From: an uncultured Thermoplasmatales archaeon
GTDB lineage: Archaea; Thermoplasmatota; E2; DHVEG-1
Length of the DNA stretch: 64,000 nt
Assembly (NCBI GenBank): GCA_964597365.1
Contig: CAZQXW010000007.1
Span: forward strand, 2,268 to 66,267
Direction: 5' to 3'
Numbering within the stretch: the first letter of the stretch is position 1; each line of letters begins with the position of its first letter. Shown in pieces: positions 1,419 to 47,644 of this stretch. The position numbers and the translations under genes were made by a program. The notes under the pieces are model-generated. The model made no database searches. It had not been told where the DNA came from and saw only the letters and a list, made by a program, of their open reading frames with translations.

Positions 1419-1668
1419 TCTTCTTCTCCTTTGCCTGCCGAATGATGTCGTACACCTTTCCTCTCAGTATCCCGTTGTTTGCAAGTGCTGCATGCACCTT
1501 CATCCACTTGGCACTGGCTTTATCTATGTAGGATCTCTTTCCTTGAGCGTGTGCGTCGGAGTCGATTACTCGAAGTAGTTCTGAATGATCTTCGAACTGT
1601 ATCACCGTGGCCTCAAACTGTTCCTTCTCATCTCGGAGCACATAGAACTCCACGTTCCCCAGTTCCAT
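1408..1668 (-). CDS. hypothetical protein
   Basis: Overlapping stop/start packing with neighbours. Confidence 0.55.
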   Translation of the reverse strand: MELGNVEFYVLRDEKEQFEATVIQFEDHSELLRVIDSDAHAQGKRSYIDKASAKWMKVHAALANNGILRGKVYDIIRQAKEKKNGS

Positions 1669-2057
1669 TACAGCAATTCTCCAATCACCTGATAAAGCTC
1701 TTGATCAGACATAGTGGCAACCGGACGCCCTTTGTAATTAGCTATCCCCACGTTATCCAAAAACGTACTACTACCCGATCCAAAGGCAACCTGATACGTA
1801 ATAATCTTAGAACGCACCCATGCTCTAAGATTCTCCGTCTCGTCTACTTCCAATCTGAACTTATCCCACCAACCCTCTCCTAACACACGCCGTACCACCA
1901 GTAGAGTCGAAGCCTTTGGTAGAACCGTTTCCAACACCATCCCCTCAGTTACCACCCCTCCCCGAAGAACAGTATCAACTAAATAGAATCGATCACTCTC
2001 TCGGTGCAGTATGAGAAGTCCTCCATCCATAGTCTTCCAAAGTCCTCGGGCACTCAC
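1668..2057 (-). CDS. hypothetical protein
   Basis: Tightly packed ORF. Confidence 0.55.
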   Translation of the reverse strand: MSARGLWKTMDGGLLILHRESDRFYLVDTVLRGGVVTEGMVLETVLPKASTLLVVRRVLGEGWWDKFRLEVDETENLRAWVRSKIITYQVAFGSGSSTFLDNVGIANYKGRPVATMSDQELYQVIGELL

Positions 2058-4096: not shown

Positions 4097-4555
4097 TCAC
4101 TGAGTATAATCTGGCAACAGGTTGACAGAAACACCTTTCGTGTACGCCTGATCTATGCTCGGAAGGGTTTTCTGAGCAACCGTTTCCCCATCAGGAAGCA
4201 TGATGTGCGGAAGGAACTCCTCCTCAAAGGTGGCAATCCCAGTCTCCACAACCTCGAACTTCGCCTTGATCGCGAGAATCAACGCACGCCATCGTCTTGC
4301 CTGCTCTGCCTCCCACTCTTTAGTGATCTGAGGCTCTGTTCTTTTCAGCCGACGTTCAGGAGTGTAAGTAAACTCAGACCGAGCAGGAAACGGGATCATG
4401 AATCGTACATACCGGTTCGAATGATGAAAGATCACTATCGCTCCCTTCTCTTCCTCACCGATCTTGTAGTTCGATCCGCCTTTGTTATAAACCAACCGCT
4501 TGAGTTCTGCCTTGCTTCTCTCAATCGGTACCTCGGTCCCCTTTGCGTAGGCCAT
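4097..4555 (-). CDS. conserved phage hypothetical protein
   Basis: MAYAKGTEVPIERSKAE...WRALILAIKAKFE...FEEEFLPHIMLPDG resembles a recurrent phage family (recognition by eye). Confidence 0.75.
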   Translation of the reverse strand: MAYAKGTEVPIERSKAELKRLVYNKGGSNYKIGEEEKGAIVIFHHSNRYVRFMIPFPARSEFTYTPERRLKRTEPQITKEWEAEQARRWRALILAIKAKFEVVETGIATFEEEFLPHIMLPDGETVAQKTLPSIDQAYTKGVSVNLLPDYTQ

Positions 4556-4787
4556 GATCCCTATTCTCCTTCTTCCCCAGAGTCACTGTCTTGAACACCC
4601 CCAGTGCTCTCTCCGTCTGCACTTCTGCTTTCACTGTCATCCCCTCGTGCTGCAAACGAATGACCCTTCCATCCGTCAGCACGAACTCCACCCTGAAGCG
4701 CGTTGCGAATATCTCGGAACTTCCCGTCTTCGGATCGATAATTTCGATCTGTCTCAAATCCATCAGATGCCTCCCATCGAAACCCAT
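4521..4787 (-). CDS. hypothetical protein overlapping tail of upstream ORF
   Basis: Beta-rich protein-like sequence; overlaps 4561..5139 out of frame. Confidence 0.5.
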   Translation of the reverse strand: MGFDGRHLMDLRQIEIIDPKTGSSEIFATRFRVEFVLTDGRVIRLQHEGMTVKAEVQTERALGVFKTVTLGKKENRDHGLRKGDRGTD

Positions 4788-17828: not shown

Positions 17829-18437
17829 TCAAACACCATACGTGATACGAAAGGGCTGGACGTTCTCGCGCAACTCCCGCGTCGACAGTCGACGGTTATG
17901 ACCGCCCTTGCCATCAGGAAACCTCGCGCCCCACGGATCATTATATATCAGTTCTCGGGTTTGTGTATCGTATGCCAGCACAGCAATATAGTGCCCCGGA
18001 TTCTTGAGACACAGCTGCACCGCCCTTCCCCTATCCAGTTCCTTAACTATGCTCTCCCACTCATTCCCCCATTCAAACCTTCCCCGTACTCCAAATACGG
18101 CGTACACCCCATGAGGGTAGTATTGCGGAACTCTGTTCTCCGGCAGCATATCTACAACAGAGTTTGATCTGATCTCTCGCAAATCATCCTTGATCCGAGG
18201 ATCATTGAAGAAGTCCATCAGCACTTCCTCCGGCTGTGGTTTGAATGTTCCCGGACACGTAATATCCACACTCTTCCCCATCGCTGCCAAACAGTTCACC
18301 GCTGCCGTAGGTCCGCAGGACTCCAACCAGCTATCTCGGTCATGTCGAGTAGCTTTCAGATACGCCTCAGTTGGATTGTTCTCTTGACTGTAGTACCTAC
18401 CCCGATCATTCCAAAACCGTACACCTTTGTGTCTCAT
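17829..18437 (-). CDS. peptidase C39-like (papain fold) protein, candidate lysin
   Basis: YYSQ...SCGPTAAV (Cys), GHYIAVLAYD (His), LIYNDPWG. Confidence 0.8.
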   Translation of the reverse strand: MRHKGVRFWNDRGRYYSQENNPTEAYLKATRHDRDSWLESCGPTAAVNCLAAMGKSVDITCPGTFKPQPEEVLMDFFNDPRIKDDLREIRSNSVVDMLPENRVPQYYPHGVYAVFGVRGRFEWGNEWESIVKELDRGRAVQLCLKNPGHYIAVLAYDTQTRELIYNDPWGARFPDGKGGHNRRLSTRELRENVQPFRITYGV

Positions 18438-42809: not shown

Positions 42810-42838
42810 ATCTTAGCAGATCATGCCAGTTGTGTCAA
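42810..42838 (-). promoter_or_regulatory. sigma70-type promoter of replication operon
   Basis: TTGACA (42833-42838), 17-bp spacer, TAAGAT (42810-42815). Confidence 0.75.
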
Positions 42839-42951: not shown

Positions 42952-43524
42952 TTATCTTGATAATGCCTGCACCCCGATCACGATGGCTTCAAGAACAGCT
43001 ACACCTATTGCGATCCCCACCCCCCACTTTAGGAGTGCCTCCCTGTGCTCATACCCTTGGACGAGATTTTCTATCTCAGCTACATGAGACTCCTCATTCT
43101 CCTCCAACTGTTGGGTCGTACTTTTCAAGGATTCCGAGACCTCGGTCAATTGACTCTCCAAGAAGTCGATTCGACTCTGCAATGCTTCCTGCTCCCTCTG
43201 CGCTGCTGTCAAGCGCCTCTCCAAGCGATTGATTCTCTGCTCTAAGTTGCTGCGCAATCGTTCGGCTTCTTCCAAGCTCAGATTCAAGTCGACTATTATC
43301 TGCTCGGAGTTCGCGTAGTTCTGCTTGGCTTCGCTCAAGCTCTGCTGCAAGGCGCTGATTTCCAGATTGGAGTTCGCCAACAGTGCCTTCGAGGTTAGCA
43401 ATTCTTCCTTGAGCATGTTGTAGTCTTCCAATGACATCGCTATAGTCTGCCCGAAGCCGCTCAATGGTAGCATCAGCAGCATCGCGATCAGCACCCCAAT
43501 CGAGACGAACCTTGATCGAATCAT
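42952..43524 (-). CDS. coiled-coil envelope protein, o-spanin-like (signal peptide + C-terminal TM, no lipobox Cys)
   Basis: Signal peptide, long heptad repeat, C-terminal hydrophobic helix; ATGA-coupled to holin. Confidence 0.6.
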   Translation of the reverse strand: MIRSRFVSIGVLIAMLLMLPLSGFGQTIAMSLEDYNMLKEELLTSKALLANSNLEISALQQSLSEAKQNYANSEQIIVDLNLSLEEAERLRSNLEQRINRLERRLTAAQREQEALQSRIDFLESQLTEVSESLKSTTQQLEENEESHVAEIENLVQGYEHREALLKWGVGIAIGVAVLEAIVIGVQALSR

Positions 43525-43588
43525 AAACCGCCACCCCCAGAGCGAGAACTATCAACACTACCAGTGCTTTCCACATCCACCCGTTCAT
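43094..43588 (-). CDS. i-spanin (Rz)-like protein
   Basis: AAGGAGGT SD, N-terminal TM, periplasmic coiled coil; overprinted on 42952..43524. Confidence 0.6.
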   Translation of the reverse strand: MNGWMWKALVVLIVLALGVAVYDSIKVRLDWGADRDAADATIERLRADYSDVIGRLQHAQGRIANLEGTVGELQSGNQRLAAELERSQAELRELRADNSRLESELGRSRTIAQQLRAENQSLGEALDSSAEGAGSIAESNRLLGESIDRGLGILEKYDPTVGGE

Positions 43589-43895
43589 GTGTAGTTGTAC
43601 CTCCTTGTCCATTGGTTATGACTTGTCTTTCTCGAACCTCACTTCGCTGTTGAACCATCTTGAATGCCTGCCCACCTGCGGCGAGACCTGCTCCTCCCGA
43701 AACAACCAGAACCAAACTACCGATGAGTTGGAGAAGCACATTCGCATTTTCGGAACCCTGCGTGATCTTTACCATAGCGATGCTGATCAGAACCATACCC
43801 CAAATCACCATCAAGGCCCCGAGAGTAAACCCAAGGAAAGCGAGCAGTCTCATCATAGATCGGTTGCCCGGTTCGCGTTCAAAGAAACCCGTCAT
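43521..43895 (-). CDS. holin-like membrane protein
   Basis: Two TMs, SMMRLLAFLG motif, position between fibres and spanin-like genes. Confidence 0.65.
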   Translation of the reverse strand: MTGFFEREPGNRSMMRLLAFLGFTLGALMVIWGMVLISIAMVKITQGSENANVLLQLIGSLVLVVSGGAGLAAGGQAFKMVQQRSEVRERQVITNGQGGTTTHERVDVESTGSVDSSRSGGGGL

Positions 43896-44047: not shown

Positions 44048-45661
44048 CTATACAGGACGTATCCCTGCTTCTACTGGGGCAGACTCTATTGTAACGATCC
44101 CTCTTCGACCGATATAAGAATGCCCATTTCCAAAAACATGCGCTTCGGTGATAGGTTGAAAAGCAGGTAGGTTATTAGCCAAACACTCCCACGTATTTGA
44201 ATCAAAGTCGAATCTGTAGTGCTGCAAAAACTCTTTACCAACCCCACCATCCATCATTAACCATACATCCGTATCAGAAAATCTCCCTATTACAGGTACT
44301 CCAATAGACACAGCAACAGGTTCATTTATAGCTATTGATCCCAACTCATCAAAGGAAGAGCCATTGACCTCCCACATATGCAAAGTTTCATTGTCCGTGT
44401 TAATGGTGGCTACTCTGGTAGGGGAGAGCGCTGCCACAGGGGTTGAATTGGTAGAAGTATTTGATACGGAAGCAATCTCTGAAAGGGAGGAACCATTCCA
44501 GCGGTATAGCGAAAGTGAACCTAACCCACTGGCAATATCGGTGATAAACACATCTTGTTCGTTTAAGGCACAACTTATCTTTGGTTCAATAAGTGTAGCA
44601 GAAACAGAGTCTTGTAAGGTAATTGTTGCCGTTACCAACTGGTATACTTGAATCTCATTAGCGGTGGTATTCAAAACAATCACGCTATCCTGAGTAACTC
44701 GTTCAAGCCTGTCATACGTAGCTACCGTAAAAGAAGCAGCCGTAAAAAAATAGTCCGTAGAAGTAAGAGGATCATCAGAGACAAGCTCAAACAGATTTAG
44801 TTCATTATTAGTTGCATCTAATACCCAAAGAAGCGAACCTCGCCAGTGAGCCACATCCCTCGCCGTTATACCTGTAAAAGTTATGGGAGTCAGTTTCATT
44901 GCCGATACTCGAAAATCCGTCCTTCTATAGATACCAAGTGTAGTTAATGCCTCTTGAGCCGTTCGATCATCAAGAATTGATCGGGAAAACTCTGTAGTAT
45001 GCTCTACTGTGCTTTCTACATCTACAGTCCAATCATTTCCTGAACGCACATCCGTAATTTTGTCTTGGGAAATAGACGATACCCCCGAAGCAACATAGAC
45101 CTCCGCAAGTTTTATCCATCCTGAAGTACGAGAAGGCGCAACCGGAGATGCTGCTTCGGTACCTTCTCGAACGGCTATTTCATACCCGTATTCCTTCCGA
45201 GTGTTCACAACCGACGTAGTGATCAATTTGGTAACGGGGTCCTTGAAGTTTCGGGATTTCGCTTCATAAGGAACCTCTATAGGCCGTATCTCAACCAAGT
45301 CTATTCGATCCTGTGATCCGCCAGAATTGAAAGCTACCTGAGTATCCTCAGAAAGGAGCACCGAGAAGATGTCTCCGGCGCTTGCGGAAAAACCCCAGAC
45401 ATCTGAAGAGAGGTAATACCCTTGAGAAGAAACAGCTGCCCCAGAACGAAGCGTACACGTAAGAAGGTTGTCATGCTCTAATTCGAGTCCTCCAACAACT
45501 ACATCCTTTCCTTCGGACAGCAACCCTTTAGCCATTGTCGCGAGGGTATCAGTAAAGTTCAGGTATTGTGACAACCCTACATGATTGATGTCGGCTTCTC
45601 GAAATATCTCATTCGGAAACCATTGACTTGTCTTTATTCCTCGGCCCTCACTATACGTCAT
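44048..45661 (-). CDS. tail fibre / receptor-binding protein 2 (beta-propeller C-terminus)
   Basis: N-terminal ~220 aa paralogous to 45671..47644; repeated blade-like motifs. Confidence 0.75.
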   Translation of the reverse strand: MTYSEGRGIKTSQWFPNEIFREADINHVGLSQYLNFTDTLATMAKGLLSEGKDVVVGGLELEHDNLLTCTLRSGAAVSSQGYYLSSDVWGFSASAGDIFSVLLSEDTQVAFNSGGSQDRIDLVEIRPIEVPYEAKSRNFKDPVTKLITTSVVNTRKEYGYEIAVREGTEAASPVAPSRTSGWIKLAEVYVASGVSSISQDKITDVRSGNDWTVDVESTVEHTTEFSRSILDDRTAQEALTTLGIYRRTDFRVSAMKLTPITFTGITARDVAHWRGSLLWVLDATNNELNLFELVSDDPLTSTDYFFTAASFTVATYDRLERVTQDSVIVLNTTANEIQVYQLVTATITLQDSVSATLIEPKISCALNEQDVFITDIASGLGSLSLYRWNGSSLSEIASVSNTSTNSTPVAALSPTRVATINTDNETLHMWEVNGSSFDELGSIAINEPVAVSIGVPVIGRFSDTDVWLMMDGGVGKEFLQHYRFDFDSNTWECLANNLPAFQPITEAHVFGNGHSYIGRRGIVTIESAPVEAGIRPV

Positions 45662-45670
45662 CTACTTCTC

Positions 45671-47644
45671 CTACAATAAATCAGGCGGGTCTCCCCGATA
45701 CACACGAATCAATTCAGTAGTTGAACCATAACAATGGAGGTAAGCTGATCCTAATCCTCCTATAGGAGGCCATCCAAACCCTGAAATCTCTCCCGGAAGG
45801 TTAGTCAATACCACAACCCATTCAAACGTCTCGAAATTGAACCGCAGCTGTTTCCCGGAGAGACCCTCAGTTAAAAACAGAATAAAACTTGAAACCCAAA
45901 CATCTGTGTTGGATATCGGGGTTAAGAAAGGCCCTGAAGGAGTAGCTGCATAATCAGAAAACGGATCATAAGAACTTCCCAAACGATTCAGACTTTGTCC
46001 ATCAAACTCCCACATTTGCAGGGTGTCATCATCATCAAAATCAAACGTAACAAAGTGAATCGGGTCTAACGCTACAACCGCACAACCTGAAGCCCCGATA
46101 GATGTGTTTGCTGCGAGTTCTACCAGAGTAGACCCCTCTAATCGGTATAACGACATCGTTCCTTGGCCGCCTGTGGTATCTGTCCATATAAAATCTAACC
46201 CATTTCTTGCAGACGCCATTCTGGTATCCTGAAGGGCCGAAGCTCCTCCAGACAAAGTTATAGGACTACCCAAAGCAGATATTGACGGAACGGTAGGATC
46301 AAACTCAAAAGCTTGAATCTTGTCGTAATCGTATCCGAGCATTACACAAACGTTGTCCTTAATTCTTACAACCTCTACTGTAGCGGGAAGATTGAGACTA
46401 CCTATCTCCGCGACCTCTGTTAAGGTAATCGCATTAACTGTCGTCTCCCACACATACACAACAAGTTTGTCGTTGCCCCCATCAGCAACCCAAATATAAC
46501 TGCCTGCACACCATGCCCCACTTCGTTCTAAAACTGTACTCGGATTAGCCGCCAAAGAGATGACTCCAGAAGTCGAAACAAAAGAAATTGACCCTGTTGG
46601 TTTTCTGAGAATGTTCTTGAATCTCTGATCAAAGACTCTAAAGGTGCCTCCTGTGGACCCAATAAACGTGGCAAGAAGAATCTCATAAGCAGTAGGAACA
46701 GAGGAATCAACCACAAATCCAAACGATCCGGCAACCCCTTCTGATAGCTTAACGTAATTGAGGGTACTTCCATCAAGGGTTGCGCTACCAATCGTCATAT
46801 TGGTCTGATCTTCCGTTTCCACTCTGTAAACTGTTCCATACTCCTCGGTTATATAGGAAACAAGAGCAGAGATATCGAGAGTATCCCCTGTTCCTTGAGA
46901 AACTACTCCTCCCTTAATGAGCACCTTGCTGTGTTTCGAGAAGTCCAAGACAGTTTGACCGGCGCTTACTACCGCTCGAAAAGGTTCGACAGTTGTTTCC
47001 GAATCTGTGGTCCATGTATCAGAATAGCGTACATCCTTGATATCGCTTTGTGTAATCGAGCTTACGCCGGAAGCGACATAGACCTCTGCAATCTTGATCC
47101 ACCCTGAAGTTCGACTCGGGGCCACCGGAGAAGGGTCTTCCGTTCCTTCTCGGACTGCAAACTCGAAGCCATACTCTTTTCGAGTAGGGGTTACTGCGGT
47201 AGTTACCAGTCCTGTAACAGGGTCTTTGAAGTTTCTGGGAGAATCATTATATTCCGTTTCGATTGGTCTGATCTCAACGGTATCGATCCTATCGTCCGTT
47301 CCTCCAGAATTGAAAGCAACATTAGTGTCTACCGGCACTACCACCATAAACAAAGCACCGGGATCGGCGGAAAACCCCCACGAGTCATCTACCAGATATG
47401 CTCCTTGAGACGATATCGCCAAACCCGCTCTAAGCTTTGTAGTTAGCAGAGAATCGTGTTCGAGTAGAAGACCCCCAATTACAACATCTTTGGATTGCTC
47501 AATCAAATCCCTGTGCTGAGCGCCAAGCGTGTCGGTCATGTTCAAGTAGGTGTTCTTGCCTACGGCGTTTATATCGCTATCCCTGAAGATTTCGTTTGAA
47601 AACCAGAGTCCGGTTTTGATTCCTCTGTTATTCCCCAGTTTCAT
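45671..47644 (-). CDS. tail fibre / receptor-binding protein 1
   Basis: Follows baseplate wedge; shared N-terminal anchor (RIDTVEIRP...PSRTSGWIKIAEVYV). Confidence 0.75.
   Translation of the reverse strand: MKLGNNRGIKTGLWFSNEIFRDSDINAVGKNTYLNMTDTLGAQHRDLIEQSKDVVIGGLLLEHDSLLTTKLRAGLAISSQGAYLVDDSWGFSADPGALFMVVVPVDTNVAFNSGGTDDRIDTVEIRPIETEYNDSPRNFKDPVTGLVTTAVTPTRKEYGFEFAVREGTEDPSPVAPSRTSGWIKIAEVYVASGVSSITQSDIKDVRYSDTWTTDSETTVEPFRAVVSAGQTVLDFSKHSKVLIKGGVVSQGTGDTLDISALVSYITEEYGTVYRVETEDQTNMTIGSATLDGSTLNYVKLSEGVAGSFGFVVDSSVPTAYEILLATFIGSTGGTFRVFDQRFKNILRKPTGSISFVSTSGVISLAANPSTVLERSGAWCAGSYIWVADGGNDKLVVYVWETTVNAITLTEVAEIGSLNLPATVEVVRIKDNVCVMLGYDYDKIQAFEFDPTVPSISALGSPITLSGGASALQDTRMASARNGLDFIWTDTTGGQGTMSLYRLEGSTLVELAANTSIGASGCAVVALDPIHFVTFDFDDDDTLQMWEFDGQSLNRLGSSYDPFSDYAATPSGPFLTPISNTDVWVSSFILFLTEGLSGKQLRFNFETFEWVVVLTNLPGEISGFGWPPIGGLGSAYLHCYGSTTELIRVYRGDPPDLL

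Follow-up and report, generated by a model that had tools for sequence, protein, structure and literature searches.

The last two genes of a late phage operon, here named A and B, are on sequence evidence genuinely dual-coding over 431 nt rather than overlapping by chance, and together with the small holin-like gene that precedes them they on balance probably form a lysis cassette in which the pair acts in a spanin-like manner without a lipoprotein. Judged from architecture and genomic position, such a role is the most likely one for A and B. The window analysed is a stretch of 64,000 nt from a contig that is binned as archaeal yet carries bacterial-type signals, and it contains the following features of the cassette.

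43521..43895, minus strand: holin-like gene, 124 aa (open reading frame and translation)
43599..43606, minus strand: Shine-Dalgarno (SD) sequence of gene A, AAGGAGGT, within the holin-like gene; the ATG at 43588 lies 10 nt downstream
43094..43588, minus strand: gene A, 164 aa, or 172 aa if the upstream ATG at 43612 is used
43531..43538, minus strand: SD-like sequence of gene B, GGGGGTGG, spelled by the codons at the end of the A transmembrane (TM) helix (L-G-V-A-V-Y-D)
42952..43524, minus strand: gene B, 190 aa
43094..43524, minus strand: dual-coding stretch, 431 nt, B being +1 relative to A
42947-42932 and 42916-42889, minus strand: two intrinsic-terminator-like hairpins, directly 3' of the B stop codon

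The three genes occupy three different frames of the minus strand. A preliminary description of this DNA had placed the start of A inside the holin gene, behind a strong SD, and had reported that A and B are overprinted in different frames over about 430 bp. These claims were confirmed: A starts 68 nt within the holin-like gene, overlapping its last ~23 codons, its SD lies at 43606-43599, and the overlap with B has the coordinates and the length reported. The term "triple overlap" holds in part, as three genes do overlap, but they do so serially, and reading in all three frames is limited to 4 nt. Gene B, in the +1 frame, starts 64 nt past the A start and extends 142 nt past the A stop; its ATG is built from the Tyr-Asp codons of A and overlaps the TGA of the holin-like gene (ATGA), to whose stop its start is translationally coupled. 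The B SD and start are written into the codons of the A TM helix at eight of nine loci, with an offset of 64-70 nt between the two starts, and at all nine a purine tract resembling an SD lies ahead of the A start.

Dual coding was assessed at ten loci, comprising a Spirochaetota prophage locus of similar architecture (L094) in addition to the window and eight relatives. In all ten, the A and B frames are free of stops, where 4-12 would be expected if a single frame were coding, and the third frame contains 13-24. With the B protein held fixed and codons drawn from phage usage, 9-10 stops are expected in the A frame (probability of none below 1/3000); with A fixed, 4.2 are expected in the B frame (probability of none about 0.01). 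Codon-usage scores within the overlap are coding-like for both frames (0.00 and 0.055), compared with -0.6 to -0.7 (sd 0.12) for ordinary off-frames. Between relatives, A and B are each about 31-35% identical; mean identity is 0.31 in the A frame versus 0.14 simulated with B fixed, and 0.33 in the B frame versus 0.15 simulated with A fixed, the observed identity being reached in none of 200 simulations for 26 of 28 pairs in the A frame and 27 of 28 in the B frame. Moreover, third-codon-position identity of B falls from 0.47 within the overlap to 0.30 beyond it although protein identity is similar, so that the third positions of B are under constraint within the overlap only. Both frames are open, separately initiated and constrained at the protein level in diverged relatives, as is expected of same-strand dual coding.

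It could be argued that a single frame is coding and that the other is an accident of low-complexity, stop-poor coiled-coil codons or the product of an assembly frameshift that split a single gene. B alone was recorded by gene callers, and off-frame stops are indeed rarer than average in coiled-coil genes, as permuting B's own codons lowers the expected A-frame stops from 9.9 to 2.7. Such an explanation is nevertheless hardly credible and already close to refuted. Both frames stay open in ten diverged loci against the stop-rich third frame, a frameshift is unable to yield 143 codons open in both frames, and the third-position constraint is confined to the overlap. Gene A also possesses a separate SD and an N-terminal TM of its own, the latter encoded in otherwise "intergenic" DNA at two loci (L004 and L010) where the holin is shorter and ends before the A start. 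Conservation of only one frame had been named beforehand as the outcome that would speak against the pair, and both proteins proved to be conserved at about twice the level induced by the other frame.

Gene A is predicted to encode a bitopic protein of the cytoplasmic membrane, with its N-terminus inside and a helix of ~135 residues outside. TM prediction returned one N-terminal segment (residues ~5-27, about nt 43508-43576), in agreement with the earlier claim, behind a positively charged N-terminus, and the AlphaFold2 model continues as a single long helix (residues 31-157, pLDDT 85). The N-terminal TM and the helical topology are common to all nine A proteins, and a C-terminal motif, SNRLLGESIDR-GI, is conserved. 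Weak matches to Rz-like spanin families were obtained for phrog_739 (two of nine members, best E 2e-6) and phrog_89 (one of nine), a similarity that may be driven by the combination of TM and coiled coil. Among ESM Atlas neighbours, which are treated as leads, A falls with unnamed Verrucomicrobiota clusters, and an "Rz lytic protein" appears at 0.79 only.

The product of gene B is exported via a predicted cleavable Sec signal peptide of n/h/c type (nt 43450-43524; predicted cleavage between G-F-G and Q), which places its long helical domain outside the cytoplasm. The cleavage site is conserved in the family, with A, S or G at -1 in 30 of 31 members and Q at +1 in 28 of 31. In the AlphaFold2 model (pLDDT 91), two helices span residues 32-80 and 84-189, the latter including a C-terminal TM (residues 167-185, about nt 42958-43026) after which the protein ends in Arg, a feature found family-wide; for the mature part, the model thus shows a stalk that carries a helical hairpin and is anchored in the membrane at its C-terminal end. 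The TM is preceded by a Y-E-x-R motif and contains a Glu conserved in 20 of 31 members, and the free N-terminal strand is also conserved (QT-I-S-V-S-V-T-D-W in many members). Both the signal peptide and the C-terminal TM had been proposed beforehand and were recovered by prediction, and the view of A and B as long coiled coils is borne out by long AlphaFold2 helices in both and by many coiled-coil Pfam matches, on which the claim is based here, as a simple heptad counter proved too lenient to serve as evidence. The proposed lack of a lipobox in B extends to the whole family, none being present in any of the 31 members examined, and the surroundings of the pair at nine loci, searched to a distance of about 0.7 kb, yielded no ORF with a lipobox. 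Cysteine is absent from both proteins of the window, and periplasmic Cys is absent from 29 of 31 B proteins and eight of nine A proteins. For the periplasmic parts of the two proteins, complex prediction scored 0.31, the mark being 0.32 and controls scoring 0.00, a value that speaks neither for binding nor against it.

The B family, which is unnamed, comprises 52 HMMER matches in about 30 full-length diverged clusters. Its ESM Atlas neighbours are likewise unnamed clusters, most commonly from Spirochaetota or viruses, and are regarded as a lead. Comparison of B with spanin families gave no match beyond coiled-coil noise, and when the B model was compared with PDB structures by Foldseek, no significant match emerged, the hits being generic helical hairpins.

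The setting of the pair fits a late lysis region. A and B are the final cistrons of a late operon, after tail-fibre genes and before tandem terminators, and the late transcription unit ends at the hairpins 3' of B; a separate sigma70-like promoter (42838-42810) belongs to the sigma-factor-like gene that follows (42777-42193). The holin-like protein has two hydrophobic TM-like segments (residues 24-42 and 53-71) and a charged tail, features on which the holin call is based; its PHROG search returned a weak "membrane protein" match only, and homologues occur at L003 and L004. Synteny as in the window is kept at six relatives (L003, L004 and L007-L010), and small holin-like proteins with two TMs adjoin the pair at L011 and in the Spirochaetota prophage L094. 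A scan of 29 proteins, neighbours or candidates, from the window and its relatives recognised no endolysin near the pair; the sole candidate is a Peptidase_C39_2 protein (17829-18437), 25 kb from the cassette. A by-eye reading of L011:4151-4477 as a zinc peptidase was unsupported by Pfam, PHROGs and PDB sequences.

Known spanin systems provide the closest parallels. In overlapped two-component spanins such as P2 LysB/LysC, T5 and Jersey, the start of the second gene lies within the first, in the +1 frame, and its coding sequence extends beyond the end of the first, as in A/B, and these pairs, like the embedded lambda Rz/Rz1 type, are the final genes of the lysis cassette (PMC6139136). A and B form a gene pair of this embedded or overlapped kind, and A has the layout of an i-spanin, the first protein of two-component systems, with a type II N-terminal TM domain followed by a long, largely helical periplasmic domain. 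The overlap, in contrast, measures 368-473 nt in A/B pairs versus the 70-155 bp quoted for overlapped spanin pairs (PMC6139136). The second protein differs more deeply. The definition of spanins includes an outer-membrane lipoprotein signal, a lipobox lipoprotein and periplasmic cysteines are regarded as general features (Kongari et al. 2018, PMC6139136), and cysteines forming intermolecular disulfides have been proposed to be near-universal in two-component spanins (PMC6139136). An o-spanin is a small outer-membrane lipoprotein, whereas B is a helical protein of 156-200 aa with an SPase I-type signal and a C-terminal TM, lacks a lipobox with its lipoylated Cys, and shows no detectable sequence relation to any o-spanin; the cysteines for disulfide links are missing from A and B and nearly absent from A/B pairs in general. 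The unimolecular spanin T1 gp11 (PMC6139136) shares with B an N-terminal export signal, a periplasmic domain, a C-terminal inner-membrane TM domain and the final position in the cassette. Its signal, however, is of the lipoprotein type and fixes it to the outer membrane, while that of B is plain and cleavable, and B differs further in being all-helical and in having an obligatory overlapping partner. The non-canonical spanin pair of the preliminary description is accordingly upheld as to gene layout, the i-spanin topology of A, the missing lipobox of B and the position after a holin-like gene. A search for a publication describing such a pair found none.

A working model can be outlined on this basis. 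The holin-like gene, A and B would together form the lysis cassette that ends the late operon, and A and B would act jointly on the envelope once the holin has fired. A would stand in place of the i-spanin, and B either in place of the outer-membrane lipoprotein or as a lipid-free unimolecular spanin whose conserved free N-terminal strand contacts the outer membrane or the wall. The periplasmic parts, of about 135-140 residues, would as helices be long enough to cross the periplasm, and their collapse into the modelled hairpin might draw the membranes together. Counting against a spanin reading are the predicted anchoring of both proteins in the cytoplasmic membrane, the absence of an endolysin beside the cassette, the absence of a lipobox and the near-absence of periplasmic Cys. 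A bolder version, which is possible but doubtful, is that the pair is a lipid-anchor-free spanin in which B acts like a viral class I fusion protein and A is its inner-membrane partner. B might then extend across the periplasm with its N-terminal strand docked in or on the outer membrane or an outer-membrane protein, and snap into a hairpin once the wall is cut, so that the two membranes are fused or torn.

Two other explanations accept A and B as real. The pair may act in the cytoplasmic membrane only, either partnering or regulating the holin (as antiholin-like or XhlA-like proteins, or as other accessories of lysis timing or hole formation), possibly in a host without an outer membrane, a scenario that appears unlikely but deserves attention. 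It is consistent with the predicted membrane anchors of both proteins, with their tight coupling to the holin-like gene, and with the conserved TM Glu of B, which suggests intramembrane partnering; in one relative (L007), an additional coiled-coil protein whose TM is C-terminal is encoded immediately upstream of the holin. XhlA of the Bacillus prophage PBSX (PF10779) resembles B as a small coiled-coil protein with a C-terminal TM and a holin neighbour, and the window's B matches it below threshold. Identification of B as XhlA was rejected, as this match (28.3 bits) falls below the Pfam cut-off of 34.7 and only two of 31 B members match at E <= 0.001; XhlA, moreover, has neither a signal peptide nor an overlapping partner. 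About 140 extracytoplasmic helical residues per protein also exceed the need of a membrane-embedded regulator, and the single member located in a host chromosome belongs to a Spirochaetota genome, that is, a diderm.

A role unrelated to lysis, for example in superinfection exclusion, envelope remodelling or virion assembly, is quite improbable. No endolysin is adjacent and family annotation of the holin, A and B is limited to weak matches, both of which would fit such a role, but in otherwise differing loci the pair consistently follows tail-fibre genes, precedes a terminator and has small holin-like proteins with several TMs as neighbours, and it is translated together with the holin-like gene. 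Expression of exclusion genes is usually early, and a better candidate for that function exists in the early region of the same phage contig, where a small protein with a textbook lipoprotein signal is encoded (G000:C7:1916-2134). Since the phage encodes such a signal, its host probably processes lipoproteins normally, and a missing lipoprotein pathway therefore cannot explain the lipid-free design of the putative spanin. The adaptation to an unusual envelope that the preliminary description had raised as a possibility accordingly found no support.

Relatives and a possible host were sought in several ways. The B profile matched one of 401 Spirochaetota, none of 401 in the phylum of a "Deltaproteobacteria" MAG and none of 146 in that of a Saganbacteria MAG, numbers too few for host assignment. 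The Spirochaetota locus L094 is treated as an architectural equivalent whose homology to A/B is unproven, as hhalign of its pair against the A and B profiles gave short local matches only. A RecA scan for host affinity was non-discriminating, with a flat 42-51% identity over many phyla and a Treponema MAG on top at 48%, and tRNA genes are absent from the window. Word-based searches of proteins, with A or B as the query, recovered the window's own B only; scans of viral contigs with one protein at a time (B, the sigma-like protein, the holin), blastn and tblastn of the cassette and B against cultured phages, and a DNA search in 60 relatives of the MAG gave no match; and the pattern QTISVSVTD revealed no relative in genome contigs. 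DnaB matches to cultured phages were all below 25% identity.

Spanin-free disruption of the outer membrane has a precedent in the disruptin gp28 of phage phiKT, (bioRxiv 10.1101/515445), a single small cationic peptide, in contrast to the membrane-anchored coiled-coil pair proposed here. The same source indicates that a sizeable share of phages of diderm hosts lack a recognisable spanin, the figure being about 15% of phages (10.1101/515445). For this missing function, a lipoprotein-free pair that is conserved at the usual spanin position offers a candidate open to direct test. If the reading of B as a fusion-like protein were true, A/B would represent an unannotated second solution to outer-membrane disruption, explaining some of the roughly 15% of "spanin-less" phages. 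With ~430 nt, this same-strand overlap, both of whose products are conserved and structured helical membrane proteins, also ranks among the longer such cases in tailed phages, and it exhibits a marked coding economy, as the end of the A membrane helix spells the ribosome-binding site and start codon of B. As with two-component spanins, where one of the two genes is missed by gene callers, only B was recorded at every locus seen, and protein family A is for this reason missing from databases.

A single stretch of DNA in the window yields two conserved, separately initiated and co-transcribed envelope proteins, encoded by the overlapping genes A and B. Every gene in the window is on the minus strand. 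Genes for the baseplate and tail fibres (Baseplate_J, sheath and tube initiators, two fibre-like proteins) precede three ORFs, each in a different frame, which overlap serially as follows.

Features around genes A and B (all minus strand)
44048-47644, minus strand: two fibre-like proteins, upstream of the three overlapping ORFs
43895..43521, minus strand: holin-like gene, 124 aa
43588..43094, minus strand: gene A, 164 aa (172 aa from an upstream ATG at 43612)
43524..42952, minus strand: gene B, 190 aa
42947-42932 and 42916-42889, minus strand: two terminator-like hairpins, immediately 3' of B's stop
42810-42838, minus strand: sigma70-like promoter (TTGACA-17-TAAGAT with TG), 3' of the tandem hairpins
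42777-42193, minus strand: sigma-factor-like gene, opening the next operon behind this promoter

A and B overlap by 431 nt. The "triple overlap" of the preliminary description stands as three serially overlapping ORFs, with the part read in three frames spanning 4 nt only. Its strong SD for A and the start of A inside the holin-like gene are both seen in the window, where AAGGAGGT lies 10 nt 5' of A's ATG; the holin stop and B's ATG overlap (ATGA), the latter preceded by GGGGGTGG. The hairpins and the sigma70-like promoter form a clean boundary between the late operon and the next, so that A and B are the final two cistrons of the late transcription unit.

Direct searches with the A, B or holin sequences found no relatives. 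A search with the neighbouring DnaB-like helicase led to two related contigs of viral origin, L003 and L004 (L004 is part of a 91-kb contig), and both contain the cassette with both frames open. Searching 1.8 billion cluster representatives with a profile built from three B proteins returned 52 matches, about 30 of them full-length (156-200 aa) and built alike, and six more contigs encoding B-family proteins brought the comparison to nine loci. Each of the nine has an ORF of 145-178 codons in frame +2 relative to B (B being +1 relative to A) that shares 368-473 nt with B, and the longest open run in the remaining frame is at most 39 codons.

Coiled-coil genes contain few off-frame stops, and the stop counts were therefore tested directly. 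With B's amino acids fixed and phage codon usage, approximately 9-10 stops are expected in A's frame across the overlap, and this frame was open in none of 3000 recodings; with A's protein fixed, 4.2 stops are expected in B's frame (P(0) ~0.01). Even with B's own codons just permuted among synonymous sites, P(0) was 0.03. Repeated for the nine loci and a tenth in a Spirochaetota genome, the test observed 0 stops in the A and B frames alike at every locus, where either single-gene null expects 4-12 and the third frame has 13-24. Codon usage agrees: with a log-odds score trained on 35 long window genes, the two frames of the overlap score like coding sequence (0.00 and 0.055), compared with 0.165 for true frames and -0.60 and -0.70 (sd 0.12) for ordinary off-frames.

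The proteins themselves have diverged, with identities of 25-44% to the window's A and 20-46% to its B. For 28 locus pairs, which are not mutually independent but show a uniform effect, one protein was aligned, synonymous codons were re-drawn in both sequences, and likeness in the other frame was scored over 200 simulations. Identity of A was 0.31 observed against 0.14 simulated, exceeding all 200 simulations in 26 of the 28 pairs; for B the values were 0.33 and 0.15, above all simulations in 27 of 28. This null takes synonymous sites as saturated, which is supported by third-position data: third positions of B, which are the first positions of A, are 0.47 identical within the overlap and 0.30 in the part not overlapped by A, with B protein identity alike in the two regions (0.35 and 0.32, respectively). 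Taken with the simulations, the higher third-position identity shows that both frames are subject to protein-level selection. Conservation of only one frame, set beforehand as the refutation of the overprinting claim, is not what the comparison shows, and both frames are genuine.

The initiation signals are shared as well. An SD-like purine tract precedes every A start in the nine loci, and B starts 64-70 nt downstream of A in eight of them; the spacing is 4 nt, with one SD in front, in the most distant of the nine, L012, and 10 nt in the Spirochaetota locus. The strong conservation of the motif that closes A's membrane helix (L-G-G/V-x-V-Y-D/E) is explained by its codons, which also spell B's SD and ATG. 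The ~30-codon glycine/serine-rich C-terminal extension of the holin-like gene is restricted to the clade in which this gene and A overlap (43521-43612 in the window). The gene is ~30 codons shorter in L004 (6177-6458) and L010 (4022-4306), stopping before A, whose N-terminus there falls within a gap annotated as intergenic. The tail therefore looks like read-through over A's start, with a sequence dictated by A's membrane helix.

Gene A encodes a short positive N-terminus, one TM segment and a predicted long helix (residues 31-157, pLDDT 85), with a conserved C-terminal motif (S-N-R-L-L-G-E-S-I-D-R-x-x-G-I) and, in the window, no cysteine. B has a predicted classical Sec signal peptide, with A/S/G at -1 in 30 of 31 members and Q at +1 in 28, and its mature N-terminal end often reads Q-T-I-S-V-S-V-T-D-W. 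The B model (helices 32-80 and 84-189, pLDDT 91, pTM 0.65) is interpreted as a hairpin of helices whose stalk continues directly into the C-terminal TM; length variation in the family (~21-28 residues) falls mainly around the turn between the helices, and 20 of 31 members have a Glu within the TM. The lack of a lipobox noted at the outset extends to every B-family member checked: the -1/+1 residues fit plain Sec cleavage, and where a Cys does occur close to the cleavage site, in three members, position -1 is Pro or Leu. No lipoprotein ORF was found within ~0.7 kb of the pair at the nine loci. The positive-inside rule predicts that A and B are both anchored in the cytoplasmic membrane with ~135-140 helical residues outside each, apparently pointing away from it in opposite senses (A from N to C, B from C to N).

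Spanins are defined by the outer-membrane lipoprotein signal of the o-spanin or u-spanin, their gene pairs are embedded, overlapped or separated, and disulfides between the partner molecules have been proposed as general among them (Kongari et al., PMC6139136). A shares i-spanin features, the pair shares the overlapped layout of two-component spanins, and B shares the C-terminal TMD of u-spanins, whereas the lipoprotein signal and the cysteines are missing. The non-canonical spanin pair first proposed thus keeps its architectural likeness but should not be classified in a spanin family, although it may work like a spanin. Membership of B in XhlA was rejected, the match falling below Pfam's threshold. 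A full-text search within one literature library found no paper on a lysis cassette whose coiled-coil pair is encoded in two frames and lacks a lipoprotein.

Assignment of the pair to a lysis cassette rests on position: the gene immediately upstream encodes a protein with two TM segments and a charged tail and is coupled to the pair in translation, the pair closes the late operon, and small multi-TM proteins also adjoin the pair in the otherwise different loci L011 and L094. Spanin-like action at lysis is modestly favoured. In this mechanism A would be the i-spanin equivalent, and B would replace the lipoprotein or amount to a unimolecular spanin without lipid, its conserved free N-terminal strand providing the outer contact and its hairpin representing the collapsed state. 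The main rival, and a less likely one, is a function tied to the holin and limited to the cytoplasmic membrane, with which the coupled two-TM neighbour and the predicted anchoring of both proteins are also compatible. A role outside lysis, which the late-operon position next to holin-like genes argues against and the absence of a recognised endolysin beside the cassette, in the window or in relatives, might favour, is improbable. A single-gene artefact, to which the general scarcity of off-frame stops in coiled-coil genes might have pointed, is very hard to sustain given the stop counts and the conservation of both frames.

Several neighbouring genes may be recorded here. A Peptidase_C39_2 protein (17829-18437, minus strand, 202 aa, E 6.6e-9), 25 kb from the cassette, is the sole wall-hydrolase candidate found in the window. 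In L011, a 108-aa ORF (4151-4477, plus strand) precedes the pair and two small TM proteins; its reading as a zinc cell-wall peptidase (H..D ... HxH by eye) gained no support from Pfam, PHROGs or PDB sequences, none of which matched. L007 encodes an extra 158-aa coiled-coil protein with a C-terminal TM (4181-4657, plus strand) directly upstream of its holin-like gene, which the window does not have an equivalent of.

The contig was placed in an archaeal (Thermoplasmata-like) bin, but the strong, bacterial-type SD usage in the window suggests that it is probably mis-binned and the host bacterial. The phage RecA (32975-34036, minus strand, Pfam RecA E 5e-77) shares ~42-51% identity with RecA from a wide range of bacterial phyla, a flat profile that does not discriminate among hosts; searches found no cultured phage relative, and the window contains no tRNA genes. 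Searching 401 Spirochaetota genomes with the B profile identified a single locus, and the 547 genomes searched from two further phyla had none. This locus, L094 (G185:C135:28536-31988), has a dual-frame A-like/B-like pair (1481-1966, minus strand) with weak sequence relation to the window family, in the order tail-fibre-like gene, unknown 186-aa gene, the pair, and a 76-aa two-TM holin-like gene; EF-G, FeoB, Asd and SHMT genes 10-20 kb off on the same contig mark it as a prophage. ESM Atlas look-alikes, which are leads only, come from Spirochaetota for B and Verrucomicrobiota for A, both diderm phyla. On the full contig, 133-351 bases before the window's first base, the phage early region encodes a 72-aa ORF (G000:C7:1916-2134, minus strand) that carries a textbook lipoprotein signal (MKVLMVLMVFVLVVS|C) and has an SD site; its product may be a superinfection-exclusion lipoprotein. 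The phage therefore does use a lipobox elsewhere, and its host presumably processes lipoproteins normally, which counts against the lack of a lipoprotein pathway as the cause of the lipid-free design.
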